From Sphingomonadaceae bacterium (GTDB taxonomy: Bacteria > Chloroflexota > UBA6077): a stretch of DNA of 54,762 nt. Location of the stretch: contig JBLNDL010000063.1 of assembly GCA_050261575.1 (NCBI GenBank), positions 1 to 54,762 of the forward strand, given 5' to 3'. This document shows, piece after piece, positions 8,962 through 31,957 of the stretch; the stretch's first letter is position 1; each line of letters opens with the position of its first letter. The notes beneath the pieces were generated by a model. The model was not told the DNA's origin. It saw only the letters and a list, made by a program, of their open reading frames with translations, and made no database searches. The position numbers and the translations under genes were made by a program.

Positions 8962-9027
8962 TCCCGCAACGCGAGCGAGCACAAGGTTGCGCTTCTCGCG
9001 TTGGGTGAGGGAAATGGAGGACGATTG

Positions 9028-10626
9028 ATGCCGGGTTTGGTCGAGTGCGTGCCGAACTTCAGCGAGGGAAGGGACCCATCCGTGGTGGACCGCATCGTGG
9101 CGGCGATGACGGCGGTTCCGGGGGTGCGGCTGCTCGATAGGAGCATGGATGCCGGGCACAACCGATCGGTGGTGACCATCATCGGGAGCCCGGAGGCGGT
9201 GGGCGAGGCCGCCTATCGAGGGGTGGCGCAGGCCGCCCAACTGATCGATCTGCGTGTCCACCGTGGGGAGCATCCGCGCATGGGCGCGGCAGACGTGGTC
9301 CCCTTCATCCCCCTGCGCAACGTGACGATGGAGGAGTGCGTGGCGCTGGCCCGAGCCGTGGGAGAGCGGATCGGTCGCGACCTCTCCATCCCCGTCTTCC
9401 TGTACGAGGAAGCGGCAACCCACGCGGAGCGCCGGAACCTCGCGGACGTGCGTGGCCCCCAGTTCGAGGGGTTGCTCTCCCTGGTGGGGACCGATCCCTC
9501 CAAGACGCCTGACTTCGGCCCCAACGCGCTGCACCCCACCGCCGGTGCGGTGGCGGTAGGCGCCAGGCATCTGCTAGTGGCCTACAACGTCTACCTGAAC
9601 ACCGCCGACCAGTCGATAGCCAAGGCGATAGCCAAGGCCGTCCGCCACCAGGGCGGCGGGCTGCGCTTCGTGAAGGCCCTCGGCATCGCCCCCAACGAGG
9701 CTGGCCGCGTTCACGTTTCCATGAACCTGGTCAACACCTCTGGCACGCCGATCCACCGAGTGATGGAGCTGATCCGCTCCGAGGCGGCCCGGTACGGGGT
9801 GACCACGGTGGAGAGCGAGATCGTGGGGCTCGTCTCCGCCGATGCGCTGCTGGATGCGGCGGAGCACTATCTGCAACTCAATGCCTTCTCCCGTTCGCAG
9901 GTGCTGGAGTACAGGCTGCTGGAGGAGGAGCCTTCGGACCCGTCTCCTCTCCCAAAGGGAGAGGCTGCATGCCAATCCACTCTGCGAGAGGATCGAGGTG
10001 AGGCTGCCTCCGGCGAGGCCCTGCTCCAGGAGTCGGTGGCCGGCTTTGCCGATCGCGTGGCCTCGGGCGACGCCGTGCCCGGGGGAGGGAGTGTCTCCGC
10101 CTTCGTGGGGAGCCTTGCCGCTGCCCTGGTGGCGATGGTCTCCCGTCTGACGCTGGGGCGAAGGCGGTTCGCCGACGTGGAGGGGCGGATGAAGGAGCTG
10201 GAGGAGCGCGCCGAGTCGATGCGGACGCGGCTCCTGCGGCTGGTGGAGGAGGACTCCGCCGCCTACGCCACCTACATGTCGGCTGCACGTGAGGCGAAGC
10301 GAGGCGCAGACGGGGCGACGGCGGCGCTCCAGGAGGCGGCGCTCCAGGCGGCCAGGATACCACTGGAGACGGCTCGGGCCTCCCTGGGCGCCATCGAGTT
10401 GGCGCTGGAGGCCAGCAGGCTCGGCAATCCGGTCGCCCGCACCGACGCCTGTGTCGCCGCGCTTGCGGGCCACGCCGCCGTCCTGGGGGCGTGCCTCAAC
10501 GTGCGGGCGAACCTTCCCTCTCTGGCTCCGGAGCAGCGGCCCGAGCTGCTGGAGGCCGAGGTGAGCGCCCTGGAGCAGAGGGCGGCGGCTCTTCTTTCGG
10601 AAACGCTGGCGCTCGGGAGATCGTAG
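9028..10626 (+). CDS. ftcd: glutamate formimidoyltransferase / cyclodeaminase fusion
   Basis: ECVPNFSEGRD, HNRSV, HPRMGAADVVPF, then cyclodeaminase domain PGGGSVSA. Confidence 0.95.
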   Translation: MPGLVECVPNFSEGRDPSVVDRIVAAMTAVPGVRLLDRSMDAGHNRSVVTIIGSPEAVGEAAYRGVAQAAQLIDLRVHRGEHPRMGAADVVPFIPLRNVTMEECVALARAVGERIGRDLSIPVFLYEEAATHAERRNLADVRGPQFEGLLSLVGTDPSKTPDFGPNALHPTAGAVAVGARHLLVAYNVYLNTADQSIAKAIAKAVRHQGGGLRFVKALGIAPNEAGRVHVSMNLVNTSGTPIHRVMELIRSEAARYGVTTVESEIVGLVSADALLDAAEHYLQLNAFSRSQVLEYRLLEEEPSDPSPLPKGEAACQSTLREDRGEAASGEALLQESVAGFADRVASGDAVPGGGSVSAFVGSLAAALVAMVSRLTLGRRRFADVEGRMKELEERAESMRTRLLRLVEEDSAAYATYMSAAREAKRGADGATAALQEAALQAARIPLETARASLGAIELALEASRLGNPVARTDACVAALAGHAAVLGACLNVRANLPSLAPEQRPELLEAEVSALEQRAAALLSETLALGRS

Positions 10627-10719
10627 CTGGCGGCAGCGGGCGAGGCGCAGGCGCTTACCTGCACCTCGCCCTTCCCCCACATCGAAAGGCCCCACCTCGA
10701 TTCTCGCGCCAACAAGCCC

Positions 10720-10748
10720 TTGACAGTCCATCCCCCGATTGGTACAGC
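10720..10748 (+). promoter_or_regulatory. sigma70-type promoter of iolB-like gene
   Basis: TTGACA, 17 nt, TACAGC with upstream TG. Confidence 0.5.
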
Positions 10749-10860
10749 TTAGAACGATAGGAGGCCGTGCCGCTCGGCCCGGTGGATTGTGTTCCCTCTG
10801 GCGAGAGCGCAGGCGACAGGCTGGGCTGCTCCTGACATGGAGAAGGGAGGAAGGTTCGGG

Positions 10861-11652
10861 GTGGAGAGAAACGCCTGGTTGTTTCGCGGCACCAACGACG
10901 GCAAGGGCCGAAGGAGGATCATCGATCAAACCAACAGCGGACTCCAGTACCTGCGCTACGGCCGTATCCTTCTGGAGGACGGGAAGTTGGGCTTAGCCAC
11001 CGAGGGGGAGGAGGTGGTCCTCCTCTGCCTCAACGGGGAGGGGGTGGTCGAGATTGCCGGCCAGAGCTACCGGTTGGGGAGGTACGATGCCATCTACCTG
11101 CCCAGGGATTCGGAGTGCGCGGTCGTATCCGGAGGGCTCTTCGACCTGGCGGAGGTCTCGGCTCCAGTCGCAAAAGGCTACCCCGTCCAGTTCGTTCGCT
11201 TCCAGGATGTGCTGAAGGACGAGTCGCTGGTGAAGAGGGCCGGGTTCGAGCCGTACGCGCGGACTATCCACACCATCATCGGTGAGGGCAACACCCAGGC
11301 GGGCAGGTTGCTCGTGGGGGTAACGGTCAGCAAGGACGGCAACTGGACCAGTTGGCCACCCCACGACCACTCCGAGCAGAAGGAGGAGATCTACCTGTAC
11401 GTAGATATGCCGCGGCCCAGCTTCGGGATCCATCTCAACTATACGAAGATGAACGAGATGGAGATGGTGGTCCCCGTGTGGGAGGGAGATGCGGTTGCCA
11501 TCAAGAAAGGGTACCACTACAACGTGGCGAGCCCGGGCACCCAAATAGCCTTCGTCTGGATGATGGCTGCCATCCGCGAGGAGGAGGATCGACTCTTCGG
11601 GACCGTCACGGTCCAGCCGGAGTTCGCGGGGGGCAGGTTCAAGCTGTTCTAG
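10861..11652 (+). CDS. iolB: 5-deoxy-glucuronate isomerase, IolB/KduI family
   Basis: GNWTSWPPHDH, EEIYLY, GYH cupin motifs. Confidence 0.85.
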   Translation: MERNAWLFRGTNDGKGRRRIIDQTNSGLQYLRYGRILLEDGKLGLATEGEEVVLLCLNGEGVVEIAGQSYRLGRYDAIYLPRDSECAVVSGGLFDLAEVSAPVAKGYPVQFVRFQDVLKDESLVKRAGFEPYARTIHTIIGEGNTQAGRLLVGVTVSKDGNWTSWPPHDHSEQKEEIYLYVDMPRPSFGIHLNYTKMNEMEMVVPVWEGDAVAIKKGYHYNVASPGTQIAFVWMMAAIREEEDRLFGTVTVQPEFAGGRFKLF

Positions 11653-11673
11653 AAGAGACCGGTCGAGCCGTGG

Positions 11674-11741
11674 AACCGCGGAGGCACGGAGGAGCGGAGA
11701 GCAGCACGAACGAGTCTCCATGCCTCCGTGCCCCGGCGGTT
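11674..11741. repeat. intergenic palindromic REP-like element between convergent genes
   Basis: GGCACGGAGG...CCTCCGTGCC stem; related element at 32004-32045. Confidence 0.5.
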
Positions 11742-11751
11742 TCGGCGCGCG

Positions 11752-12414
11752 TCAGAGGATGCCGAAATCCCGAAATACCTGCTGGATGCTGGCTCCCCGG
11801 CTCAGCAGCTCCCGCACCTTGTTCTCCCCCGTGACCTTCTCCATCGCTTGCGCGATCACCTCGTCCTCGATGGCCTGGGGGATGGCCAGGCAGCCATCCT
11901 GATCGGCGAAGACCAGGTCCCCATCGTGAACGATCACGCCGCCCACCTCGATCGGCTGGCGTATGGAGATGATGTCGCAACGTCCCTTGGAGTCGGCCGG
12001 GGTCAGGCCGGTGGCGAAGACCGGGAACTTCATGGCGATGATGCCCCAGGCGTCCCTCGTCAGGCCGTCGATGATGGCTCCGCGGCCTCCCTTGGCGCGG
12101 GTGTGGGTGCTCAGCAGCTCTCCCCACACGGAAGAGGTTTTGGGGCCCTGCATGGTGCACAGCACCACCTCGCCGGGCTTCAGATCGTCCAGCAGCGCCA
12201 GCTCCAGCTTGTAGGGTTCTGCCGGGATCGTGTATGCCTGGACTCCCAACATCGTGGCAGCTCTGCCCACGATCTTGGCCTCCGGATACAGTGGGCGGAT
12301 GTCGTAGCGCATCACCTGGTTGCGATAGCCCATGTCATCCATGGTGTCGGCCAGGACGGCGGTGTACAACTTCTCTTCGATCTGGTCGTAGTAGCGTTGA
12401 CCGAACTTCTCCAC
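11752..12414 (-). CDS. RraA family / HMG-CHA aldolase-like protein
   Basis: WGELLS, GAIIDGLTRD, GDLVFADQDG. Confidence 0.9.
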   Translation of the reverse strand: MEKFGQRYYDQIEEKLYTAVLADTMDDMGYRNQVMRYDIRPLYPEAKIVGRAATMLGVQAYTIPAEPYKLELALLDDLKPGEVVLCTMQGPKTSSVWGELLSTHTRAKGGRGAIIDGLTRDAWGIIAMKFPVFATGLTPADSKGRCDIISIRQPIEVGGVIVHDGDLVFADQDGCLAIPQAIEDEVIAQAMEKVTGENKVRELLSRGASIQQVFRDFGIL

Positions 12415-12955
12415 CCTCTACTCCTTTCCTGCCCCGCGCCGTGCTGGCTGGGACGATGTTCATTCTAGGTGCAACCTGCCGCTGAGGCAACAGTTGACCG
12501 GCAACGGCGAACCTGATACGCTCTCCGCGACTTCTTCGCATCCGTACGAGGACGAAGCGCCCTGCGTTTGTGCGAGGGCCGCACGGAGCCCCCTCTGCCC
12601 CGGCGGTGAGTCAGCCTTCTTACGCGCCGATCCAGGGAGGTCCCAGCAGCAGACGATGCAGCCATCCGGACGGGCCGTAAACAGTAGCGCGCGTCCCAGT
12701 TGGCCGGCGGCTCGGCCGGGTGGTGTTGCCCGATGGCGCCGAGCGGAGCATGGTCGTGCATGCGTTCGTTCAGGCCCACAAGGCAGCGTTCACCCTCGCG
12801 CTTCACGCGGGCTGCAACCGGTGTTTCCCTCCCGCGCTCCTCCCATCGCCGTTCCAAGCTGACTGTAGAACCGGTACTTGCCACTGGAGAGCCAACGGTA
12901 CCCCATTCTGCTGGCATCCGCAGCGGTTGCCAGTACGATCCTGAGGAGGTTTTCT

Positions 12956-14044
12956 GTGAAGCACTCGATGACTCGTCGCGACTTCATGCGCCTGCTCGCT
13001 CTGGGATCTGGAGGGGTTATCCTGGCGGGTTGTGGCCAGGGGGCGCCCGCGCCCGCGGCGACCAAAGCACCGGCCGCGCCCGCGGCAACCTCGGCGCCCG
13101 CCGCGCCTGCTGCTGCCACGGCGGCTCCTGCGGCCCCTGCTGCGGCGGCCTTCAAGCCGACGCGACCTGTCACCCTGATCTGCCCCTGGGCAGCGGGTGG
13201 AGGCACCGACCGAGTTGCCCGCATGGTGGGCACCTTGCTGGAGAAGGAGTTCGGTCAGCCCGTCAACGTGGTCAACCGGACGGGCGGTGGCGGCGCCGTC
13301 GGCCACACGGCGGGATCCACGGCAGAACCGGACGGCTACACCTTCACCATCGTGACCGTCGAGATCGCCATGATGCATTGGATGGGGCTGGCGCAGGTGG
13401 GGCCCAAGGACTTCGTGCCCATCGCCCAGGTCAACTTCGATCCATCGGGCGTGCAGGTGAAGGCCGACGCCAAGTGGAACACCCTGAAGGAACTCCTGGA
13501 CGACGTGAAGGCCAATCCCGGCAAGTACAAGGCATCGGGCACGTCCAAGGGAGGCATCTGGGATTTGGCCAGGGCGGGGATGCTGAAGACCGCTGGAATC
13601 CCCGTGGACGCCATGCCGTGGGTGCCCTCGGAAGGTGCCGCACCGGGCCTCCAGGAGTTGGTGGCCGGTGGCGTATCCGTGGTTACCGCCAGCCTGCCGG
13701 AAGGCGCCTCCCTGATCGAGGCGAAGAAGGTCAAGGCCCTCGCCTTGATGGGCGAGAAGCGGGATCCCGCGTTTGCCGACGTCCCGACCCTGAAGGAGTT
13801 GGGCTTCGACTGGGTTATGGGCGCCTGGCGCGGCTTCGGCCTGCCCAAGGGGACCAAGCCCGAGATCGCCTCCGCCTACGAGGCTGCCATCAAGAAGGCA
13901 TACGACTCTGCGGAGTTCCAGGACTTCATGAAGAAGAACGGCTTCGGCCTCACGTGGCGCAACTCCAAGGAGTTCGGCGACTTCATGAACCAGCAGGACG
14001 ATACCATGGGCAAGATCATGAAGGACGTCGGCCTGATCAAGTAG
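12956..14044 (+). CDS. tctC: tripartite tricarboxylate transporter substrate-binding protein, Tat lipoprotein
   Basis: TRRDFM twin-arginine, LAGC lipobox, Ala/Pro linker, PWAAGGGTD, VPTLKE; GAGGAGG RBS. Confidence 0.92.
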   Translation: MKHSMTRRDFMRLLALGSGGVILAGCGQGAPAPAATKAPAAPAATSAPAAPAAATAAPAAPAAAAFKPTRPVTLICPWAAGGGTDRVARMVGTLLEKEFGQPVNVVNRTGGGGAVGHTAGSTAEPDGYTFTIVTVEIAMMHWMGLAQVGPKDFVPIAQVNFDPSGVQVKADAKWNTLKELLDDVKANPGKYKASGTSKGGIWDLARAGMLKTAGIPVDAMPWVPSEGAAPGLQELVAGGVSVVTASLPEGASLIEAKKVKALALMGEKRDPAFADVPTLKELGFDWVMGAWRGFGLPKGTKPEIASAYEAAIKKAYDSAEFQDFMKKNGFGLTWRNSKEFGDFMNQQDDTMGKIMKDVGLIK

Positions 14045-14081
14045 ATGGTTCGCAGGCTTTGTTAGGTAGGCGGTCCACGAT

Positions 14082-14528
14082 ATGAAACGGTCGGATGCTG
14101 TGCTCGGCGGCGCCGCGGTGCTCCTTGGCGCCGCCGTCTACCTCAACACCCTTGCATTCCCTACGATGCCCGACGGCGCGCCCGGGCCGGCCCTGTTTCC
14201 GCAGATCCTGTCGGCGTTGCTGATACTGTTCGGCGGTATCATCGTAGCCCAGTCCATCCGTCCCCACGTCCAGGAGGAGCGCCACTACGAGCCCAAGGCG
14301 ATCCTCAAAGCGGGCGGGGTGCTGGTGGCCATCGCCCTGTACGTGATGGTGGTGCAGAAGGTGGGTTTCCTGATCACCGCCGCCGCGATCCTGTTCGGGC
14401 TGATGATGATGCTCGGTGTGCGGGTGAGGGTGGGGTTACCCGCTTCGGTGGCCATCGCCCTGTTCTGTGTCCTGCTGTTCGAGAAGGTGCTGCGCGTACC
14501 TCTGCCGCCGGGCGTTCTGGGGGGCTGA
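14082..14528 (+). CDS. tctB: tripartite tricarboxylate transporter small membrane subunit
   Basis: PGPALFP, four TM segments, LRVPLPPG. Confidence 0.9.
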   Translation: MKRSDAVLGGAAVLLGAAVYLNTLAFPTMPDGAPGPALFPQILSALLILFGGIIVAQSIRPHVQEERHYEPKAILKAGGVLVAIALYVMVVQKVGFLITAAAILFGLMMMLGVRVRVGLPASVAIALFCVLLFEKVLRVPLPPGVLGG

Positions 14529-14531
14529 GTC

Positions 14532-16025
14532 ATGGATGCTGCCTTACGCGGTGTCACTCAACTGGCCGACCCTATGGTCATCCTCACCATCGTCCTCGGG
14601 TCGGCCATGGGCTTGCTGTTCGGGGCTATCCCCGGACTCACGGCCACCATGGCCGTGGCGCTCCTGGTCCCGTTCACCTTCTTCATGGACCCCCTGCCCG
14701 CCCTGGTGGCCATGGTCACGGTGTCGGCCATGGCCATCTTCGCGGGGGATATCCCAGCGGCCCTAGTGCGGATACCCGGAACGCCCTCCTCGGCGGCCTA
14801 CACCGACGAGTCCTACAAGCTCACGCAAAAGGGGAAGGGCGAGTTGGTGCTGGGGGTCGACGTGGTCGCCTCGGCTATCGGCGGGGTCTTCGGTGCCCTG
14901 GTGCTGATGGTGGCAGCCTCTCTACTGGCCGAGGTGGCCATGCAGTTCACCTCCTTCGAGTATTTCTGGCTTGCGGCCCTCGGGCTGTCGGCCACGGTGA
15001 TGGTCGCCTCGGAATCCCAGGCCAAGGCGGCCATCGCCATCATCCTCGGTCTGCTGCTCTCCACGGTGGGGCTGGACATCACCCTGGGCTATCCCAGGTT
15101 CACCTTCGGTGAGGTGGAGCTGCTCAACGGTCTCAACTTCATCCCCGCCATGATCGGCCTCTTCGGCGTGGCGGAGGTGATCCGCAACGTGCTGTCCGGC
15201 AGTTTCAACCTCCAGCCGATACGAGTGAGATCGGAGAGTATCTTCAAAGGGGTGGGGTCCACCTTGTGGCGGTACCGGGGTAATATGGTGCGGTCGGGCT
15301 TCCTCGGGACCGTCATAGGGGTCCTGCCTGGCGCCGGCGCCGACATCGCAGCCTGGCTGGCCTACGCCGTCTCGCGCCAACGCTCCAAGGAGAAGGAAAA
15401 GTACGGCACGGGCCACATCGAGCCGATAGTGGATGCGGGCACTGCCAACAACTCCTGCCTCGCCGCCGACTGGGTGCCCGCCCTGGTGTTCGGCATCCCG
15501 GGCGACTCCATCACGGCCATCGTGATCGGAGTGCTGTTCATGAAGGGGCTGAAGCCCGGCCCGCAGATCTTCGAGACTTCGCCGGAGCTAATCTACTCGG
15601 TGTACTTCTCCTTCATCCTGGCGAACGTCCTGATGATCTTCTTCGGCTATCTGGCAATCAAGGGATCGACCTACATCCTGAGGGTGCCGCGGAACGTCCT
15701 CCTGCCGGCCATTCTGCTGTTCTGCATCGTCGGTGCCTATGCCATCAACAACTCCCTGTTCGACGTGGGCCTGATGCTGGCCATGGGGCTGCTGGGGTAC
15801 TACCTCGAGCTGAACGGCGTGCCCGTGGCGCCGGTGGTGCTGGGAATGGTGCTGGGGCCGATCCTGGAGAAGAACTTCATGTTCAGCGTGATCAAGACCA
15901 ATTGGGACATGACCCTCTTCTTCAGTCGGCCCGTGGCGGCGGTGCTGGGTGCCATCACCATCGCCATCTGGCTGGTGCCGCTCTACCCGAAGCTGTTACG
16001 CAGAAGGAAAGGGGCGACGATGTAA
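14532..16025 (+). CDS. tctA: tripartite tricarboxylate transporter large membrane subunit
   Basis: GAIPGLTATMAVALLVP, RIPGTP, GIPGD. Confidence 0.95.
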   Translation: MDAALRGVTQLADPMVILTIVLGSAMGLLFGAIPGLTATMAVALLVPFTFFMDPLPALVAMVTVSAMAIFAGDIPAALVRIPGTPSSAAYTDESYKLTQKGKGELVLGVDVVASAIGGVFGALVLMVAASLLAEVAMQFTSFEYFWLAALGLSATVMVASESQAKAAIAIILGLLLSTVGLDITLGYPRFTFGEVELLNGLNFIPAMIGLFGVAEVIRNVLSGSFNLQPIRVRSESIFKGVGSTLWRYRGNMVRSGFLGTVIGVLPGAGADIAAWLAYAVSRQRSKEKEKYGTGHIEPIVDAGTANNSCLAADWVPALVFGIPGDSITAIVIGVLFMKGLKPGPQIFETSPELIYSVYFSFILANVLMIFFGYLAIKGSTYILRVPRNVLLPAILLFCIVGAYAINNSLFDVGLMLAMGLLGYYLELNGVPVAPVVLGMVLGPILEKNFMFSVIKTNWDMTLFFSRPVAAVLGAITIAIWLVPLYPKLLRRRKGATM

Positions 16026-16272
16026 GCTGCTCTTCTCCCGGAGGGCGAGGCTTTCTCCTCGTCGCGCTGGGCCGCAAGCGAAGGGTCTCCACGTGGCAAT
16101 TGGTGCGCCCCCACGCGGAGATGCTGAGCGTAGCGAGGCATCGCAGGTGTAGCGGGTCTTGCGCACCCCAGCGGGACCGCGGCGAGGGTCACGCGATGCT
16201 CGGCACGACGGTCTGGGCGACTTCGAGAAAGCCTTGCTCCTCCTGGGGGAGGGAGTCCCCTTGTCCCCAGTG

Positions 16273-16785
16273 TCAGGGCACCACCTGATTCTCGAAGCGG
16301 CCGCGGTAGTGGGCTCGCCCCTTGCACTCCTCGAAGATGAACTGGCAGATGGCGGTGCCCGGGTAGATGGCTAGAGGAACCGGACCCACGTTGATCATCT
16401 CCAGCACCTGTTTGTTGGAGATACCCGGCTGCATGAAGCCGGCCGTCATGTGCACCATGAGCCCCACCCGGGCGAAGCGGCTCCGCCCCTCCAGCCATCC
16501 GCAGATGTTGTCCGGCAGGGTTATCCTCTCCAGGGTGATCCCGTGGACGGCCTGGCCGGGCATCAGCAGGAGGTGGTCGTCCACCTCGATCAGCTCGGTG
16601 ACGTCCTCGAAGCTGGCGTCCTCGGTGACGGGGTGGATGTGCGGCAGGGCGCGGAAGACGCGGAACTTGTTGTCCAGGTGGAGGTCCACCGAGGCCGGCC
16701 CAACCTGATCCTCGGAGAAGGGCTCTATCCTGATCTCGCCTTCCCGGATCAGCCGGAGGATCTCGTCGCGGGTTAGCACTGCCAT
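16273..16785 (-). CDS. dcd: dCTP deaminase
   Basis: QVGPASVDLHL, GRSRFARVGL, TAGFMQPG, ICQFIF. Confidence 0.9.
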   Translation of the reverse strand: MAVLTRDEILRLIREGEIRIEPFSEDQVGPASVDLHLDNKFRVFRALPHIHPVTEDASFEDVTELIEVDDHLLLMPGQAVHGITLERITLPDNICGWLEGRSRFARVGLMVHMTAGFMQPGISNKQVLEMINVGPVPLAIYPGTAICQFIFEECKGRAHYRGRFENQVVP

Positions 16786-16909
16786 CTCTACCTCTGAAAG
16801 CGCCCAACAGGCCAGATCCGCGGGCGTGCGCCGAACCCCGCCACGCGATTGCGAAAGCATCCCTCCACGTCGATCGGCGCACGCCCGCGGGCCTGTTGGG
16901 CTGTCTCGA

Positions 16910-17599
16910 TCACGCGGCCGCCGGCCGCTGCCGCCTACCAGCGATGGTCAGCAGGTTCTCCACGTAGACCACGCCGGCGGTGTACCAGGCGTCCCTTTCG
17001 GCGGCCTGCCGCTCCTCCACGTTGGTGACCTGGCCCTGGAGCCGGACGGTGCCCGCCACCGACTTCACGGTGATCTGAGTGGGATCGGCGATGCGGGCAT
17101 CGCTGTCCAGGGCTGCGCGCACGTCCTGCTCGATCTCCGCATCGGGGCGCCGCCTGTCTGCGGAGACGGTGAGCTCGTTGGAGACGTCCACGACTCCATC
17201 CGTCTGCCAGGCGTCCTCCTCCGCGGCCCGCCGTTCCGCCTCGCTGGAGACGGTCCCCGAGAGGCGGACGATCCCTTCGGCGACGTTGACCACCACGCTC
17301 CGGTCGTCAACCCGGGGATCACGTTCCAGGGCGGATGCCACGTCGGCGGCGACCTGTTCCGCCGGCCGCAGGATGTCGGGCTTCACCTGGAGTTCGTTTC
17401 TCACCTCGGTGACCCCTTTGATCCGCCAGGCATCCTCGGCTGCCACCAGCCTGTCGACGTGGCGCGCTACCGTTCCGGAGAGGGTGACTATCCCTCGCTG
17501 TACCCGAACCGAGATGCCCTCGGGCCGGAGACGGGAGTCGTGATTCAGGACTTCGAGGACCTCGCTGGCTATCCTCTGGTCGCTCTGGCTCTCGGGCAT
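16910..17599 (-). CDS. triple BON-domain protein
   Basis: Three repeats of GIVTLSGTV...AAEEDAW..GV..V.NEL; GGAGG upstream of ATG 17599. Confidence 0.92.
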   Translation of the reverse strand: MPESQSDQRIASEVLEVLNHDSRLRPEGISVRVQRGIVTLSGTVARHVDRLVAAEDAWRIKGVTEVRNELQVKPDILRPAEQVAADVASALERDPRVDDRSVVVNVAEGIVRLSGTVSSEAERRAAEEDAWQTDGVVDVSNELTVSADRRRPDAEIEQDVRAALDSDARIADPTQITVKSVAGTVRLQGQVTNVEERQAAERDAWYTAGVVYVENLLTIAGRRQRPAAA

Positions 17600-17698
17600 T
17601 GGTGAACGGCCCTCCGCAATAGAGCTCTCAGCCTTCAGCGATCCGCTTCCGACTCCTGCCCCGAGGCTGTCTGCGGATCGCAGCGCTGTAGCCACTCG

Positions 17699-17714
17699 AG
17701 CAACGAGTATGCCA
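17699..17714 (-). promoter_or_regulatory. sigma54 (-24/-12) promoter of the BON gene
   Basis: Minus strand TGGCATACTCGTTGCT. Confidence 0.8.
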
Positions 17715-17942
17715 CCGGCGAACGGCGGGGAACGATCCAACGATCGGCCCGTTCCCAGCCGTCGAACGGCTGGCCGTCCACTCGCCCGAGTGGGGTGGCG
17801 GGGAACGCAGCCATCGGCCTTTCCGTGGGTGTGCTTGGCGGGCGAGCGGATGCCCCCTCGCAAGCTGTCTGAATGGGAGACGATTCGGTCGCCGGACCAC
17901 ATCAACGTTGATGCATCGACTGTGCCAATGGGCAAACCGGGT

Positions 17943-17958
17943 GGGCATCGATCGTGCG
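17943..17958 (+). promoter_or_regulatory. possible distal sigma54 promoter of the rRNA operon
   Basis: GGGCATCGATCGTGCG, GG-N10-GC. Confidence 0.45.
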
Positions 17959-18018
17959 GTGCCTGCCCGGTCCGTGAGAAGGGGCACTGGCCCCGGGGGC
18001 ATCCCGAGGCGGAACCCC

Positions 18019-18034
18019 TGGCACGGTCCCTGCT
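18019..18034 (+). promoter_or_regulatory. sigma54 promoter P1 of the rRNA operon
   Basis: TGGCACGGTCCCTGCT. Confidence 0.75.
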
Positions 18035-18111
18035 TAAGTCAGAGGTCTTTCCGGCCGATGGGTCGGAGGGGCGGTTCCTCCAGAGAAGGGGGGACGGGGC
18101 AGGGGTTCCGG

Positions 18112-18127
18112 TGGCACCGATCGTGCA
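18112..18127 (+). promoter_or_regulatory. sigma54 promoter P2 of the rRNA operon
   Basis: TGGCACCGATCGTGCA; predicted +1 near 18138, just ahead of the leader hairpin and boxA-like GAACCTTAACAG. Confidence 0.75.
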
Positions 18128-18220
18128 CTTGACATAACCGGTCAGGGTCGCGAGGGGCGACCGGCGCGAACCTTAACAGCCGAACAGTGGTGAGAGGGTG
18201 TGGCGCCTCGAAGAGAGGCT

Positions 18221-19823
18221 TTTCCGGTGGGTTTGATCCTGGCCCAGGACGAACGCTGGCGGCGTGCCTAGTACATGCGAGTCGTACGGGCCGGCGAAAG
18301 CTGGCCAGTGGCAGACGCTCGAGTAACACGTGGGCAACCTACCCCCAAGCGGCGGACATTCGGCCGAAAGGCCGGTAAATCCGCCATGTGGTCGCCTGGC
18401 ACTAGGCCTGGCGGCTAAAGCCGATGAGGCGTTTGGGGAGGGACCCGCGGCCCATCAGGTCGTTGGTGGGGTAACGGCCCACCAAGCCGATGACGGGTAG
18501 CTGGTCTGAGAGGACGGCCAGCCTTGCGGGGACTGAGACAGGGCCCCGACTCCTACGGGAGGCAGCAGTATGGGATCTTGCGCAATGGGCGAAAGCCTGA
18601 CGCAGCGACGCCGCGTGGAGGAAGAAGGCCTTCGGGTCGTAAACTCCTTTTGCCGGGGAAGAAGGCCCGATACCAGCGCTCGAGAGCGGGCCATTAGCGT
18701 CCGAAGCTGATGGCCGGAGCGATGGTTCACGTCGGGCTTGACGGTACCCGGCGAATAAGCCCCGACCAACTACGTGTCAGCAGTCGCGGCAATACGTGGG
18801 GGGCGAGCGTTGTCCGGATTCATTGGGCGTAAAGAGCGCGTAGGTGGTGGCACCCGTCGGCCGTGAAAGCCCTCGGCTCAACCGAGGAAGGGCGGCCGAT
18901 ACCGTGTCGCTTGGAGGACGGCAGGGGGAGGCGGAACTCCCGGTGGAGCGGTAATATGCGTTGATATCGGGAAGAACCTCAGTGGCGAAGGCGGCCTCCT
19001 AGACCGTTCCTGACGCTGAGGCGCGAAGGCGTGGGGAGCGAGCGGGATTAGGAAACCCCGTTAGTCCACGCAGTAAACGATGGGCACTAGGTCCGGGGGG
19101 CATTGACCCCTTCCGGGTCGAAGCTAACGCGTTAAGTGCCCCGCCTGGGGACATACGGCCGCAAGGCTGAAACCCAAAGGAATTGACGAAGACCCACACA
19201 AGCGGCGGAGCACGTGGTTTAATCCGAATCGGACCGTAGAACCTTACCAGGGCTGGATGTCGGGAGTAGGAACCGGAAACGGGGACGACCCGTAAAGGCG
19301 GGGACCGGCACAGGGCTGAATGGCTGTTGTCAGTTCGTGTCGTGAGACGTTGGGCTCAGCCCCACAACGAGCGAAACCCTCGCTGCTAGTTAGCCGTCGT
19401 CAAACGGCTTCTCTAGCGGGACCGCCGGGTAACCGGGAGGAAGGAGGGGATGACTTCCAGTCGGCATGGCCTTGATGCCCTGGGCCTCACACGTGCTACA
19501 ATGGCCGGTACAAAGGGCTGCCAAGCCGCGAGGCGGAGCTAAACCCAAAAAGCCGGCCTCAGTTGGGATTGCAGGCTGCAACTCGCCTGCATGAACGTGG
19601 AGCCGCTAGTAACCGCCGGTCAGCGAAACGGCGGTGAATGTGTCCCTGGGTCTCGCACACCTAGTCCGCCGTGTCCTGGGTGCCTTCCCGCGCCGAAGCC
19701 CCGCTTGCCCCCACTGTCTGAGTGGACCATGGGGACGGCAGGGCGAGGGCGGGACAGGTGACCGAGGACACGGGCGTAGCAAGGTGGTCGTACCGGAAGG
19801 TGCGGCGGAAATCTGCCTTTTCC
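18221..19823 (+). rRNA. rrs: 16S rRNA, highly divergent variant
   Basis: Colinear 16S landmarks (TTTGATCCTGGC, ACTCCTACGGGAGGCAGCAG, 530 loop, AAAGGAATTGAC, h45 GGAA loop) with many substitutions at invariant sites; ends approximate. Confidence 0.95.
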
Positions 19824-19988
19824 GGCAGAACGGCCGGGTCGATCCCCGGCGTTCCGTCCGGACAGTCTCGAAGCCTCTGATGCAGTCTCTCCAAGAGGCG
19901 CTCCACCCTCTCACCATTGTCGGCCGAGGGGTCGCATGTCCAGCACCTTTACAACCAGATAGCTTTCATTCCGCTCACGAGTCAGCAG

Positions 19989-23017
<3,029 letters not shown>

Positions 23018-23087
23018 TGGTGCTCGGCGGCAATGGAAGCTATCTGGTTGGAAAGGTGACGGTACAGCGGCCCTTACACTCTTTGCT

Positions 23088-23126
23088 CAGGGGCGCCACC
23101 TGCGTTAGAGGCTGGTGGCGCCCCTG
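23088..23126 (+). terminator. 13-bp stem hairpin after 23S, no U-tract
   Basis: CAGGGGCGCCACC / GGTGGCGCCCCTG. Confidence 0.5.
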
Positions 23127-23154
23127 CGTCTGTCGAGCGGCGGAGGAGAGCAGA

Positions 23155-23445
23155 ATGGCCATGCGACTCTACGTCGGGAACCTCCCCGACGACGTGAAGG
23201 ACGAGGACCTCATTGCCCTGTTCGGGCAGGCGGGCACCGTGCAGTCGGCTGAGGTGGTCCGCCAGACCACCGGACAGTCCGCCGGATACGGTTTCGTCGA
23301 GATGGCATCCGACACCGAGGCCGAGGATGCCATCCGGGCCTTCAACGGCTACATGTTGGACGGCAACGAGATCGAGGTGAGGGTCGCGACTCCGGAGGGG
23401 ATCGGCTATCCCCCCAGCTACGGGGGGCTCACCTCGGAGGGGTGA
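23155..23445 (+). CDS. RRM (RNP-1/RNP-2) RNA-binding protein
   Basis: RNP2 LYVGNL, RNP1 AGYGFVEM, AIRAFNG; GGAGGAG RBS. Confidence 0.95.
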   Translation: MAMRLYVGNLPDDVKDEDLIALFGQAGTVQSAEVVRQTTGQSAGYGFVEMASDTEAEDAIRAFNGYMLDGNEIEVRVATPEGIGYPPSYGGLTSEG

Positions 23446-23591
23446 GCCGAGGCCGTAGCGGCCGACACGGCGAAGGCGATACGCACCGTCGCGCCGATCG
23501 ATTCGACCGTCATGCTACGCTCAGCATCTCCTCGACGCGGAGATCCTTCGCTGTCTCTCGAGGATGGCCAGTGGCGATCTTGCAGGCCACG

Positions 23592-24761
23592 TTACCGGTA
23601 CTGCATCGCGAGTTCCGCGTAGACCTCCGCGGCGGCTGCAACCTCCTCGACGTCTACCCACTCGTCGGATGTGTGAGCCTGGGAGATGTCGCCGGGGCCC
23701 AACACGACGCACGGAATCCCTCCGGCCACCAGTTCGCTCGCGTCGGTGCCGTATGCCGCGCCGGCCGGCGCGGCCCTGCCGAGGATATGCCTGCACGCCT
23801 CCAGGGCGGCTTGGACGATTGGGGCGTCCACGGGGGTATCCAGACCCCGATACTCCTTCAAGATGGCGGCGACTTCGGCACGTATCCAGGGCCGGTCTTG
23901 GCGCAGGCCTGCGACGAATGCACGCAGCCTGTCCGCCGCCCGGGCGGGCTCCTCCTCGGGCAGGGTCCGCATGTCCACGTCGATGCTGCACTCGGACGGC
24001 ACCACGTTGATCTGTACCCCCCCGGAGATGCAGCTAACGCTGAGGGTGGCCGGCCCGCACAAGGGATGCCGACGCTCGGCCAGTTGGGCTTCCACTCGTT
24101 CCCGCAGCGCCTGGATCAGATCCACCATCTGGTAGATGGCGTTGTCGCCCAGTTCCGGGCGGGAGCTGTGGGCGCTCCGCCCGCGAGTGACGAGCCTAGC
24201 TCTCAGCCCGCCCTTGTGGGCGACCACAGGCTGCAATCCAGTCGGCTCGAACACCACGGCCGCGTCTGCCCTGCCTCCTCCCTCGACGAACGCCCGCGAT
24301 CCTGTGAACCCTATTTCCTCGTCCATGGCTCCGAGGAAGAGCAGGTCGGCCGGCAGCCGATCTCGGTGGGGTGCAAGCAGCTCCAGTGCGTGGAGGAAGG
24401 CCGCCGCGGAGCCCTTGACGTCGCAGGCGCCACGGCCGCGCAGGCGGCTGCCCTCCAGTCGAGGCGTTAGTCCGTCCGGCATGTTGGCAACCGTCACGGT
24501 GTCCATATGGCACTCGAACAGCAGCCTCCGGCCCGGATTGCCCGTCCTCAGATGGGCCAGGAGATTCGGCCTGCCTGGCATCACCTCATCCATCGATGTC
24601 TCGAAGCCGAGCCTCTGGAGGTGGCCTGCCAGATGCCTGGCCAGCTCGACCTCGCCCGGCCCACCACCCTCGACCGCTGGATTCACGCTGTTGATGGCGA
24701 CTAGCTCGCTCAGCAGTTGGACCACTCGCCGGCGGTTGGCGCGCCCCTTGAAGCCGATCAT
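23592..24761 (-). CDS. M20 family metallopeptidase/deacylase, ArgE/DapE-like
   Basis: HMDTV, GRGACDVKG, DEE, EPT, AHSSRPELG, AHTSDEWV. Confidence 0.93.
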   Translation of the reverse strand: MIGFKGRANRRRVVQLLSELVAINSVNPAVEGGGPGEVELARHLAGHLQRLGFETSMDEVMPGRPNLLAHLRTGNPGRRLLFECHMDTVTVANMPDGLTPRLEGSRLRGRGACDVKGSAAAFLHALELLAPHRDRLPADLLFLGAMDEEIGFTGSRAFVEGGGRADAAVVFEPTGLQPVVAHKGGLRARLVTRGRSAHSSRPELGDNAIYQMVDLIQALRERVEAQLAERRHPLCGPATLSVSCISGGVQINVVPSECSIDVDMRTLPEEEPARAADRLRAFVAGLRQDRPWIRAEVAAILKEYRGLDTPVDAPIVQAALEACRHILGRAAPAGAAYGTDASELVAGGIPCVVLGPGDISQAHTSDEWVDVEEVAAAAEVYAELAMQYR

Positions 24762-25179: not shown

Positions 25180-25635
25180 CTACGCCGCCTTCTCGGCGGG
25201 ACCTTCTCGGTGGGCTTGCTGCTCGGTGCGGCTGCGCACCTCTTCCTGGATGTCCAGCAGCTCGTCGACGTCGACGGGAACGGTGCGCCGGACCGTCTCG
25301 CTCGGGTGGCTGAGCCGCTTCCAGTGGGTTTCGTTTCGCTTGTCGGAAAGGAGGTGCTGGACTTGCCTCTCCAGCTCGGCCGCCACATTGACGAGGCCGC
25401 TCTCCAGGGTCTCCGCGTTCGCGCTGGCGAAGAACCGGTCGCCGGGGAGTTCCAGCACCACTCTGACGTTGTAGAACAGGTCGGTCACCGGTAGGCGGAT
25501 CAGCCGGACAGCGGCCATAACCGAATCGGACGGGTAGTCCTGGAGAAGGTGGTTCAGCAGCCCCAGCTTCTCGCGCACCAGCGCCTGCACCGCATCGGTG
25601 AGGTCCAGATCCTTGACGTGGATTTGAAAGTACAT
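25180..25635 (-). CDS. HPF/RaiA (ribosome hibernation factor) family protein with C-terminal extension
   Basis: IHVKDLDLTDAVQALVREKL, LELPG..FFASANAETLESGL...LERQV. Confidence 0.85.
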   Translation of the reverse strand: MYFQIHVKDLDLTDAVQALVREKLGLLNHLLQDYPSDSVMAAVRLIRLPVTDLFYNVRVVLELPGDRFFASANAETLESGLVNVAAELERQVQHLLSDKRNETHWKRLSHPSETVRRTVPVDVDELLDIQEEVRSRTEQQAHREGPAEKAA

Positions 25636-25678: not shown

Positions 25679-26260
25679 TCAGTCGCGTGCCCATCTCACC
25701 CGTGTGAAGGTCTCGAAGGGCAGCCGCTGCACCGTTAGCCTGCCCTTGAAGGCGCTTCTGAGCCCGCTCCCTATCCGTCGCGCCAGCGCCTGGCTGGTGG
25801 TGAGGATGTAGATGTAGTCTTCTCTGTCGTGAACGGCGGCAAGCCGGGCCGTGGGATTCGTGGCGCGCGCACGCTTCTCCTCGTTGCGCACCCAGTTCAG
25901 CACCTCCTCCTTGTGGTCCTGCATCCACTTCCCCCGAAGCACCACCTCTCCGTCGTACATCTGGCGCTGGATCCGCTGGTCGGCCGGGCACAACTCCACC
26001 CGCACGTTGGGGTCGTGCCGGAGGCGCCGGTACTCCTCCTCGTCCAGATGCCAGAGCTTGCCGTCGGAGATGGCGTGGCACACCGGGCAGATCGTCCGGC
26101 GGGGCGCGGCATTGGGGCCTTCGAACCCCTTGGCTGGGTAGTTCCACTTCTGCGTCTCGCCTTCCACCGGCCACTGGGCCTCGTGCCAGGTTGGCTCAAC
26201 TCGCCCCGGCAGGATCGGCCGGGTCCCCGACTTGACCGCGGGGGTGCGAACTCTACGCAT
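25679..26260 (-). CDS. BCAM0308-family zinc-ribbon protein
   Basis: CPVCHAI..GKLW, CPADQRI, GEVVLRG, NPTARL, TTSQALARRIG, RVRW. Confidence 0.8.
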   Translation of the reverse strand: MRRVRTPAVKSGTRPILPGRVEPTWHEAQWPVEGETQKWNYPAKGFEGPNAAPRRTICPVCHAISDGKLWHLDEEEYRRLRHDPNVRVELCPADQRIQRQMYDGEVVLRGKWMQDHKEEVLNWVRNEEKRARATNPTARLAAVHDREDYIYILTTSQALARRIGSGLRSAFKGRLTVQRLPFETFTRVRWARD

Positions 26261-26263
26261 GTC

Positions 26264-27106
26264 TTACCTCCCCGTCGAGAGATGGGTTCTGGCCTGGAAA
26301 TCGCGGAACAGGGTGTGGTCCACCTCCAGGTGGGCTCGAACGGCGCGGATACCGGCGATGTCGCTGAGGATGCGACGTATCCGCCGGGCGTCGGCGAGGG
26401 ACTGGACCTTGCCGTTGATCTCGACCGCTCCGTCGACGACGCGCATCTCCTGATCCATCACCACGATGTCGTTCGTAGCCAGGGCCTGGGAGGCCAGGCT
26501 GAACAGGTCGATGTCGTCCGTGTACTCGGGCATGGCAACCTTGATGTTGGAGACCACACCGCGTATCCCCTTGACGTCGGCGGCCGTTCGGACGGCGCGC
26601 TCCTGGTCGGACAGCTTCTGTGCGGTCCCCATCAACCGGGCTATGCCGTGGGAGACTCGGGATCCGACCCACTCGAAGCCGGAGGAGTCCAGCCGCGCCC
26701 GCACCTTCTCGTCGAGGTCTTCGTCGCTGAGGTAGCCGTCCGCCGCCACGGTGAGGGCATTCTGGACCAGCTCGACGCCCGGGATCGACTCCACCAGTTC
26801 CTCTGCGTCCATCTTCTGGCCCGCGCAATCCACCACGCCGGAGAGGATGGCGATGCGACCCTCGGTCTTGACGGTTATCCGGTCGTCCAGCCCGTCGCCC
26901 AGATCCACCCGGCCGTCCGCGGCCAGGGCAATGAGTGCCTGACCGGAGATCTCCTGATCCGCCAGGCTGCTACCTACCTTGCGGTCGGCCAGCCGTCGAT
27001 CGTCCAGGCTTCCTCGCTCATCGGGCTCGTGGAGGGTGGTGTCGGTGGGAGGGTAGGGTTCCCGTGCGAGTGCATCCTTCTCGTACTCTCGTGGTGACTC
27101 CATCAT
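26264..27106 (-). CDS. triple BON-domain protein
   Basis: Three BON-like repeats (LSGVVD...IPGVELVQNAL; GIRGVVSNI; GIRAVRAHL). Confidence 0.88.
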   Translation of the reverse strand: MMESPREYEKDALAREPYPPTDTTLHEPDERGSLDDRRLADRKVGSSLADQEISGQALIALAADGRVDLGDGLDDRITVKTEGRIAILSGVVDCAGQKMDAEELVESIPGVELVQNALTVAADGYLSDEDLDEKVRARLDSSGFEWVGSRVSHGIARLMGTAQKLSDQERAVRTAADVKGIRGVVSNIKVAMPEYTDDIDLFSLASQALATNDIVVMDQEMRVVDGAVEINGKVQSLADARRIRRILSDIAGIRAVRAHLEVDHTLFRDFQARTHLSTGR

Positions 27107-31465: not shown

Positions 31466-31957
31466 ATGTCAATCAGCAGGTACGATCCCTTGACCCGACT
31501 GATGACTCTGCGGGACGCCGTCGATAGGATATTCGATGAGGCGTTTGGCCGAACCGGCATCGCGCGGATGGCAACTGGCACACTCCCTATCGACATGTTC
31601 GAGCGGGACGACGAGTTGATCATTCAGGCCGCCGTCCCCGGCGCTCGTCCGGAGGACGTGGACATCAGCGTCACCAGCGATACCCTGACAATCAAGGCCA
31701 CCGTCCACACCGAGGCCGAGAAGGAGGAATCCAAGAACTGGAACTGGTACTTCCACGAGTTGGATCACGGCCAGGTCACCCGCACCGTTTCCCTCCCGTT
31801 CCAGGTTTCCTCCGATCAGGCCGACGCGCGATTCGAGAACGGCATGCTCCACTTGAGGCTGCCCAAGTCGAGGGAGGCGATGCCTCGTCGGATAAAGGTT
31901 CAGATGGGTTCGGGGCAGGCTCAGCAGATCGGGGTGACCCAACAGGGTGGCGACTAG
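31466..31957 (+). CDS. Hsp20/alpha-crystallin small heat-shock protein
   Basis: LPIDMFE, PGARPEDVDISV, ARFENGMLHLRLPK. Confidence 0.95.
   Translation: MSISRYDPLTRLMTLRDAVDRIFDEAFGRTGIARMATGTLPIDMFERDDELIIQAAVPGARPEDVDISVTSDTLTIKATVHTEAEKEESKNWNWYFHELDHGQVTRTVSLPFQVSSDQADARFENGMLHLRLPKSREAMPRRIKVQMGSGQAQQIGVTQQGGD

Follow-up and report, generated by a model that had tools for sequence, protein, structure and literature searches.

The stretch of DNA analysed here, called the window, comprises all 54,762 nucleotides (nt) of contig JBLNDL010000063.1, one of the 103 contigs of a metagenome bin from a soil Chloroflexota (genome G000). It carries a pair of ribosomal RNA (rRNA) genes that deviate strongly from their canonical relatives at the sites where a ribosome contacts transfer RNA (tRNA) and messenger RNA (mRNA). 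Both genes lie on the forward strand, as do all features described below unless stated otherwise. The first gene (18221..19820) is a 16S rRNA paralog that aligns with positions 1-1533 of the Rfam model RF00177 at 1218.9 bits, well over the gathering score of 50 and about 20% under the scores of canonical relatives (1449-1543 bits). The second gene (19989..23019) is a 23S rRNA paralog that matches positions 1-2925 of RF02541 at 2185.1 bits, compared with 2773.9 bits for the canonical 23S rRNA of a member of the same family (G001). The 168-nt spacer between the two genes contains no tRNA, and a long processing stem of −96.4 kcal/mol is formed between a leader strand in front of the 16S gene (18140..18221) and a trailer strand inside the spacer (19883..19960). 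Equivalent stems in a second family member (G004) and in a metagenome locus (L071), with −93.5 and −94.5 kcal/mol respectively, show changes on both strands. A typical bacterial rRNA operon links 16S, 23S and 5S genes and has leader-trailer processing stems; here the 16S is linked to the 23S and the 16S stem is present. The Rfam scan of the window, which did give two tRNAs, gave no 5S after the deviant 23S gene, whereas a canonical fragment on another contig of the same genome (C74) has one. Neither a promoter upstream of the 16S gene nor a terminator after the 23S gene was found, a weakly informative result because it concerns the sigma-70 and intrinsic-terminator consensus only.

The operon was compared across the five genomes of the family (G000 to G004, including the source genome), the 39 genomes of the order and four metagenome loci (L069, L071, L072 and L076); none of these genomes is closed, all being metagenome bins. 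Full-length deviant 16S sequences were available from four sources (the window, G004, L071 and L076), and deviant 23S sequences from four genomes (G000, G004, G002 and, as a fragment, G003). The deviant 16S sequences are 84-91% identical to one another and 74-75% identical to the canonical 16S of the family. The deviant 23S is 89.3% identical to the copy in G004 and 70-72% identical to canonical 23S.

The 16S rRNA was numbered by alignment to an E. coli 16S sequence from a public record, and the numbering was cross-checked by alignment to the Rfam covariance model. The preliminary description of this DNA had depicted a decoding centre zipped shut by the loss of A1492 and A1493, and every base change that it listed was recovered both by direct reading and in the E. 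coli alignment, with agreement from the covariance-model alignment. On the 3′ strand of the top of helix 44 (h44; positions 1486-1501, 19765..19780) these changes are A1492C (19771), A1493G (19772), U1495G (19774) and A1500G (19779), to which G1491A can be added. On the 5′ strand (positions 1398-1414, 19661..19677) they are C1402U (19665), U1406C (19669) and A1408G (19671), here accompanied by the further changes A1398C, C1399U, C1400A and C1409U. The stretch 19669-19677 is, as had been claimed, the exact reverse complement of 19765-19773. New pairs are formed between G1408 and C1492, C1406 and G1495, and U1409 and A1491. The segment 19655-19785 folds as one long hairpin of −77.7 kcal/mol (z score −4.77), a stability that none of 200 shuffled sequences reached, and at minimum energy 11 stacked pairs, from which one G bulges out, take the place of what was the A-site loop. 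The nine-base-pair complement noticed earlier is the same helix, with its register shifted by one within a GGG run. The zipped helix and its base changes are common to all four full-length deviant 16S sequences, in each of which the 5′ strand is conserved. Covariation among them was detected at 1411-1489 (U-A/C-G), 1414-1486 (U-A/C-G) and 1402-1500 (U·G/C-G). The same preliminary description had concluded that codon monitoring and aminoglycoside binding should both be lost; the conversion of the loop into a Watson-Crick helix and the disappearance of the monitoring bases stand as described, and the loss of both functions would follow, with fair confidence, from established knowledge.

The changes in the 16S rRNA extend well outside h44. 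The 530 loop (18777..18790) contains C518U (18777), C525U and U531C (18790); G530 (18789) is kept in the window, and the base at this position reads G, A, A and C across the four deviant sequences. The region 19189..19234 holds G926A together with a rebuilt loop of helix 31 (G966U, with 968-971 changed), and in helix 34 C1054A (19319) lies opposite A1196C (19458). The 3′ tail (19807..19820) has lost the anti-Shine-Dalgarno sequence CCUCC, which is replaced by other bases; the tails differ in each of the four deviant 16S sequences and none of them contains CCUCC. The genes of this genome carry GGAGG, with which the 16S of the window is unable to pair. Altogether, 171 of the 978 columns that are invariant in E. 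coli and six canonical Chloroflexota 16S sequences were altered in the 16S of the window or in its nearest relative. Bases that would be expected in a working decoding subunit are thereby replaced at 1492, 1493, 1400, 926 and 966 and are variable at 530, while the A1518/A1519 loop and G1338/A1339 are kept. An insertion of about 63-76 nt is present in the region of helix 17 (18663..18738), where cmscan reports 63 extra bases near model position 457; it is missing from the 16S of G004, and the contigs of other organisms skip 18662-18739. The sites of common primers are mutated in the deviant 16S: the 515F region by C518U and C525U, the 27F region by A8U, A10G and U24C, and the 1492R region by a rebuilt sequence.

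The zipped decoding centre is not an isolated change: contacts to tRNA and mRNA are lost ribosome-wide in this conserved paralogous operon. The numbering of the 23S rRNA was calibrated on the landmark GGGAUAACAGGC. In its helix 69 (H69) the loop carries A1913C and U1915C (22031..22033), and in the P-loop the three bases G2251, G2252 and G2253 are replaced by UUU (22371..22373), identically in all four deviant 23S sequences. The peptidyl-transferase centre and the A-loop (22569..22723) are altered by G2447A, C2452A, A2453G, U2554A, U2555C, the deletion of C2556, U2584C, U2585A and A2602G, and A1095G and A2059G were found elsewhere. Positions 2447, 2452, 2555 and 2585 vary among the deviant 23S sequences. 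Against these changes, which at the P-loop, 2554, 2556, 2585 and 2602 affect bases expected in a working peptidyl-transferase centre, A2451, G2505, G2553, A2060-C2063 and A1067 are kept. The sarcin-ricin loop (22774..22788) is intact, and in each of the four deviants positions 2654-2665 match both E. coli and the canonical relatives without a change; this loop matters for assembly of the 50S subunit. The alterations are unevenly distributed over both molecules. Of the otherwise invariant columns, the share that is changed in all four deviants is 29.3% in the 3′ minor domain of the 16S compared with 4.6-9.8% in the other three domains, and 19.6% in domain V of the 23S compared with 7.9-12.3% in the other domains. 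In known ribosomes the replaced bases are required and make contacts with tRNA and mRNA.

Could such an RNA pair still translate? A specialised ribosome working by an altered mechanism, for instance on leaderless mRNAs in hypoxia, would explain why the operon is conserved, present in RNA libraries and located among stress genes, why its processing stems are kept, and why A2451, G2553, G2505, the sarcin-ricin loop, the A1518/A1519 loop and G1338/A1339 have survived. Divergent rRNA operons that yield heterogeneous or specialised ribosomes are known, among them the rRNA types of Haloarcula and Plasmodium. Further, a report on Vibrio vulnificus describes an operon, rrnI, whose 'I-ribosomes' bias translation (PMC10697612) and which resembles the deviant pair in being an additional, differing operon that is expressed and coexists with others in one genome. 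Ribosomes of these variant types translate, so their functional core presumably works, whereas the deviant pair lacks the decoding centre, the P-loop, the neighbours of the peptidyl-transferase centre and the anti-Shine-Dalgarno sequence. A translating ribosome would have to do without the P-loop guanines, which are now UUU, and with replacements at A1492, A1493, C1400, G926, U2585, A2602 and A1913; core bases that a specialised operon would be expected to retain are lost and vary among copies. Since close relatives do not agree at positions 530, 2585, 2452 and 2555 or in the 3′ tail, these sites are not under the constraint of translation. Neither a second set of ribosomal proteins nor a motif resembling a Shine-Dalgarno sequence that would match the tail was found in the searches described below. 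The same elements have been changed by design in engineered orthogonal ribosomes, which use a modified anti-Shine-Dalgarno sequence, or a modified P-loop and A-loop together with tRNAs whose ends were altered to fit. The likeness covers the anti-Shine-Dalgarno sequence, G2251/G2252 and the bases beside G2553; in contrast to the engineered systems, the deviant pair is natural and carries changed sites that are not fixed among relatives, and no matching Shine-Dalgarno motif was found for it. The three tRNAs of the window, the only ones among which a matching set was looked for, are ordinary. On balance, a specialised translating ribosome is unlikely.

Regions encoding rRNA are error-prone in metagenome assemblies, and the operon might in principle be chimeric or the product of faulty assembly or binning. 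The contigs of DNA run X1 reproduce the deviant decoding region. Their depth is 35.3 over 19584-20542 and 35.5 in the flanks, as expected of a single-copy region; over the operon it is 33-42 against 35-36 in the flanks, and within 19584-20542 only positions 19723 and 19729, at the tip of h44, differ. X1 is possibly the source sample and so is not independent support. The base changes are not due to chance or to assembly error, because the X1 contigs match at flank depth and because four deviant sequences share the changes. With the operon found in the same synteny in four genomes and also on separate metagenome contigs, an artefact is extremely improbable.

The distribution of the operon is restricted. 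With at least 91% identity, the deviant type of 23S was found in four of the five genomes of the family (G000, G002, G003 and G004), which belong to three genera, and in none of the other 34 genomes of the order; 12 genomes of the order gave canonical-type matches only (70-72% identity) or short conserved pieces. A scan of metagenomes with an 18-nt pattern led to 11 loci being fetched, four of which hold deviant rRNA: L071 (87% identity) and L076 (83-84%) have a full 16S, L072 and L069 partial copies. A scan with a 22-nt pattern gave no matches. A search of about 186,000 species genomes for the exact 16-nt decoding-site motif returned 34 loci, of which 33 have no 16S similarity and were rejected as chance matches; the single rRNA among them is the G004 contig. 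The fifth family member, G001, has the same gene neighbourhood with the operon absent, and no rRNA-like match was obtained at the syntenic site at E 0.01 or better. What does occur there is a domain of a group II intron (L097, G001:C33, 953-1023; Rfam RF00029 at 47.9 bits), which together with about 9 kb of other DNA lies between the BON gene and the HPF-like gene.

The contig of G004 is collinear with positions 8816-23058 of the window, and this made it possible to compare the rate of change of the operon with that of its surroundings. The two copies are 89.4% identical in the 16S and 89.3% in the 23S. Six flanking orthologs share 79.3% protein identity and are only 53.5% identical at 980 four-fold sites, where composition would give 36% by chance, and the upstream spacer of the operon could not be aligned between the two genomes by blastn. 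Because the rRNAs are about 89% identical where four-fold sites are 53.5% identical, strong purifying selection must have acted on them. Structure has been maintained as well. Among 476 pairs obtained with RNAalifold from six canonical sequences alone, the deviants retain 88-90%. When only pairs standard in G003 are counted, retention is 88.8-90.1%, compared with 72-73% (maximum 77% in 500 trials) when the same substitutions are placed at random among paired columns, and 52-54 two-sided compensations relative to G003 were counted. Between G000 and G004 the fraction of pairing kept is 0.959, above both the mean (0.914) and the maximum (0.935) of the random placements.

In a maximum-likelihood tree the deviant clade falls inside the order, beside the canonical 16S of the family, with weak support (32), on a stem branch of 0.32 that precedes crown branches of 0.03-0.07. 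As read from these sequences, its history is a burst of change on one stem branch, then stasis. The operon would have its origin in the rRNA of a single Chloroflexota family, inside that family, with fast change on that branch and purifying selection since.

These results bear directly on the possibility of a decaying pseudogene operon, a dead duplicate drifting to loss. Like rRNA pseudogenes and truncated copies, the deviant pair has lost universal functional bases and has no 5S, and it has more broken pairs than canonical rRNA. A pseudogene would not, however, be expected to show 89% identity beside 53.5% at four-fold sites, compensatory changes, pairing well above the random expectation, intact stems and synteny across three genera plus the metagenome relatives, presence in RNA libraries, or a short crown after a long stem. 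Recent transfer of the rRNA segment alone, which would give high identity without selection, is argued against by collinear and normally diverged flanks. Decay is consequently very unlikely. A further possibility is an rRNA-derived RNA that acts outside any ribosome-like particle, as a sponge for a few ribosomal proteins or factors or as a regulatory or scaffold RNA. Conservation and presence in RNA libraries fit such a free RNA equally well. Structural constraint is somewhat relaxed, and trios of deviants vary at 115-147 of 1047 core columns compared with 61 in a canonical trio of similar overall divergence, about twice as much. Against it, the two rRNAs have persisted at full length in one operon whose processing stems are intact, and pairing is retained across all domains and not in one subdomain. 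We regard a free RNA as rather unlikely.

The preliminary description had implicitly treated the deviant 16S as the decoding centre of the organism, a premise that is not supported: traces of canonical operons, GGAGG sites and a canonical uS12 were all found in the same genome. Two contigs of G000, C18 and C74, open with an identical 121 nt that correspond to positions 2801-2925 of the 23S model in Rfam and are 88.4% identical to the canonical 23S of G001, compared with 79.8% identity to the 23S of the window. C74 continues into a 5S gene and two tRNAs, and a 657-nt alignment gives 83.7% and 82.5% identity with the canonical operons of G003 and G001, respectively. The two contigs have distinct downstream flanks, and at least two canonical operons, collapsed at breaks of the assembly graph, are therefore suggested for this genome. 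Repeats coincide with many contig ends: at least 12 of them (for example those of C11, C35, C37, C45, C47, C57, C65, C68, C69, C76, C82 and C85) share a repeat of about 120 nt with 98-100% identity, smaller groups share other repeats, and high-copy repeats of this kind, probably insertion sequences, account for most breaks in the assembly. The canonical 23S of genome G021 (L055, G021:C1:2313500-2317600) has an interruption of about 745 nt in the vicinity of position 1950 that points to an intron or an intervening sequence.

The use of Shine-Dalgarno sites in G000 pointed in the same direction. Before 2650 crude gene starts, GGAGG peaks between −16 and −9, with 68, 116, 162 and 96 occurrences per 2-nt bin over a background of 10-23 per bin from −40 to −18; this preserved signal calls for a 16S that contains CCUCC. 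No motif matching the deviant 3′ tail (GGCAG, AGGCA, AAGGC, GGCAC, GCAGA or CAGAT) gave a peak between −16 and −5 before the same starts, and CAGAT enrichment was found only abutting the start codon. The protein uS12 is encoded by a single-copy gene with its conserved KKPNSALRK stretch intact, uL16 is likewise single-copy, and no second copy was found for 28 of the 29 open reading frames of the S10-spc-alpha region, so that a second set of ribosomal proteins was not found among the genes searched. The exception was IF1, a factor that binds the A site of the 30S subunit, with two infA copies that are 73% identical (G000:C71:22356-22568 and G000:C95:31236-31460). Both types occur together in G003. 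On the canonical side it has a 16S scoring 1543 bits and the end of a canonical-type 23S followed by 5S; on the deviant side it has 689 nt of 23S, which share 92.9% identity with the 23S of the window and 76.0% with canonical 23S.

The deviant pair is thus a paralogous operon beside canonical operons, coexisting with them in G000 and G003, and is not the only rRNA of the cell. That it might be the organism's only ribosome, decoding without A1492 and A1493 while the canonical fragments are contamination, was suggested by the deviant gene being the sole full 16S in G000 and in G004. In a first search, however, 21 of 31 genomes of the group had no 16S at all, and the missing canonical 16S in any one bin therefore means little. 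Together with canonical Shine-Dalgarno usage, a canonical uS12, canonical 23S-5S fragments that are orthologous to those of sister genomes, the two types in G003 and the variability of key sites among the deviants, this makes an only ribosome of the deviant type highly improbable.

The operon is also represented in RNA libraries, namely in three soil metatranscriptomes of three separate studies, whose contigs match deviant-specific parts of the 23S exactly (0 mismatches). Library X11 contains contigs for 21304-21454 and 22147-22297 (151 nt each), X12 a contig for 22092-22408 (317 nt) that spans the UUU P-loop, and X13 a contig for 21915-22191 (277 nt) that spans the changed H69. In none of the three was there any depth over the protein-coding flanks at 17500-18132 and 22986-23800. 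An origin from RNA is the better reading, because carry-over of DNA would be expected to cover the flanks too. The contigs indicate presence in RNA libraries, not level, which is more than a silent pseudogene would leave.

The genes around the operon are of a kind associated with stress and dormancy. Divergent from it, on the reverse strand, lies a gene for a protein with three BON domains (16910..17935; Pfam BON, E 2.3e-45), orthologs of which flank the operon in G004, give a 75-residue match (56% identity) upstream of the 16S of L071 and occur at the empty site of G001. At 133 nt past the 23S gene and on the same strand, with no terminator-like site in between, is a gene for an RRM-type RNA-binding protein (23152..23445; Pfam RRM_1, E 6.7e-22), an ortholog of which (53% identity) follows the deviant 23S in G003. 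A paralog of the RRM gene (G000:C39:52449-52679) is 57% identical, and the DNA at C39:52440-52541 shares 75% identity, across about 100 nt, with positions 23143-23244 of the window, which span the start of the RRM gene. The order after the RRM gene is an M20 peptidase, an HPF-like gene, a BCAM0308-family gene, a second BON gene, a 2-oxoacid dehydrogenase operon and an Hsp20 gene. The HPF-like gene (25180..25635, reverse strand) encodes a very divergent paralog of the S30AE/HPF family (Pfam PF02482, 32.2 bits). The canonical long HPF of the genome (G000:C50:60766-61050) scores 81.2 bits, and almost no similarity between the two was obtained with BLASTP (best E 0.029 over 24 residues). With the HPF-like sequence as query, the gene was found in four of the five family genomes and in none of the other 34 of the order, and in G002 and G003 it lies on the same contig as the deviant 23S.

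The next gene (25679..26260, reverse strand), which sits directly after the BON protein gene and before the HPF-like gene, encodes a BCAM0308-family protein (NCBIfam NF040826, 109.7 bits, cut-off 100) with a weak NMD3-like region (Pfam NMD3, E 7.6e-5, under its cut-off; ESM Atlas score 0.96). In eukaryotes and archaea, NMD3 is a binding factor of the large ribosomal subunit, and the bacterial BCAM0308-type family could be a candidate for an undescribed ribosome-binding dormancy factor. Beyond it lies a gene for a BON-domain (OsmY-like) protein (26264..27106, reverse strand), conserved in position in G003 and G001, and, further on, a Hsp20/alpha-crystallin gene (31466..31957), conserved in position in G001. 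In G003, too, the HPF-like, BCAM0308-like and BON genes follow the deviant 23S. The NCBIfam model name of the BCAM0308 family bears the lxa label. A report on the low-oxygen-activated lxa locus of Burkholderia cenocepacia lists BON ('phospholipid-binding') proteins and an alpha-crystallin among its members and draws a comparison with the DosR regulon of mycobacteria (PMC3721108). The neighbourhood of the operon, with its S30AE, BON, Hsp20 and BCAM0308-family members, resembles this locus and the hibernation systems based on HPF, RaiA or YfiA; the latter silence normal ribosomes by means of proteins, whereas here the cluster seems to contain a pair of RNAs that would be silent intrinsically.

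Taken together, we consider it probable, with moderate confidence, that the deviant 16S-23S pair is a translation-incompetent, ribosome-like RNA. We infer with good support from the base changes that the RNAs would not translate, and the kept pairing and processing stems suggest that they would fold and mature like rRNA. They would probably assemble, a step with moderate support, with the cell's single ordinary set of ribosomal proteins into inert ribosome-like subunits. Exclusion of mRNA, tRNA and perhaps normal partner subunits from these would be the effect of the zipped h44 together with the rebuilt P-loop and the altered H69. In ordinary ribosomes, h44 and H69 form the intersubunit bridge B2a, and the changes in these two helices may, speculatively, block pairing with normal subunits. 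The particle may be at work during dormancy or under stress, where it could, for example, hold ribosomal proteins and ribosome-binding factors as a stable store or sink, which is again speculative. A more specific version is tentative and comparatively doubtful: pseudo-ribosomes, in which a dedicated RNA pair and normal ribosomal proteins would form subunits built not to bind mRNA or tRNA, perhaps with HPF-like and NMD3-like partners in hypoxia or dormancy.

Several observations weigh against this interpretation or limit its reach. The new pairs G1408-C1492, C1406-G1495 and U1409-A1491 are invariant among the four deviants and thus lack the support of covariation. Structural constraint is looser than in canonical 16S: relative to G003 the deviants have lost 46-52 of about 464 pairs, while canonical sequences compared with each other have lost 2-14, although the structure was derived from the canonical set, which favours that set. 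The RNA evidence consists of assembled contigs with a depth of 2-9, which speak for presence and not for level, transcript ends or condition; the depth that the RNA runs show in 19610-19820, in the decoding region of the 16S, is not assignable to this organism. Assembly with ribosomal proteins and lack of translation are both deductions from sequence. The canonical 16S of G000 was not assembled, the case for it being made by the two 121-nt contig ends, Shine-Dalgarno usage and the sister genomes; the main caveat is that every genome used is a metagenome bin, in which mis-binning is possible. An ortholog of the RRM gene was not found next to the operon in G002. The link to dormancy comes from the gene neighbourhood, and G001 has the cluster without the operon, so that the cluster does not need the operon; the link is therefore a matter of context and not proof.

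The distance between the deviant and the ordinary genes lies outside the range reported within genomes. In a survey of 184 species, intragenomic diversity of 23S genes was 0.01-4.04% (PMC2672173); the deviant genes are about 25% (16S) and 28-30% (23S) apart from the canonical genes of the family. No description of a conserved rRNA paralog without decoding or P-loop bases was found in the open-access and bioRxiv literature. One practical consequence concerns rRNA surveys and genome quality checks. The deviant copy assembles cleanly, being unlike any other 16S, while the canonical operons collapse, so that the deviant gene becomes 'the' 16S of the bin and, at 74-75% identity to the 16S of the family, would pass for a new, deep-branching lineage. 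Phantom lineages in surveys and misled quality checks could be the result of such paralogs. Given the mutated primer sites, amplicon surveys would miss the deviant gene, and metagenome bins would report it as the organism's 16S.

To our knowledge, A1492/A1493, the P-loop guanines, U2585 and A2602 are kept in known ribosomes of all domains of life and in those of organelles. An rRNA pair that lacks these bases and is nevertheless under purifying selection and present in RNA libraries points either to a use of rRNA other than translation or to a very different kind of translation, and either outcome would surprise ribosome biologists. If the proposal holds for this Chloroflexota family, its pseudo-ribosomes would be to RNA what pseudo-enzymes are to proteins, and would constitute a ribonucleoprotein particle of a new class.

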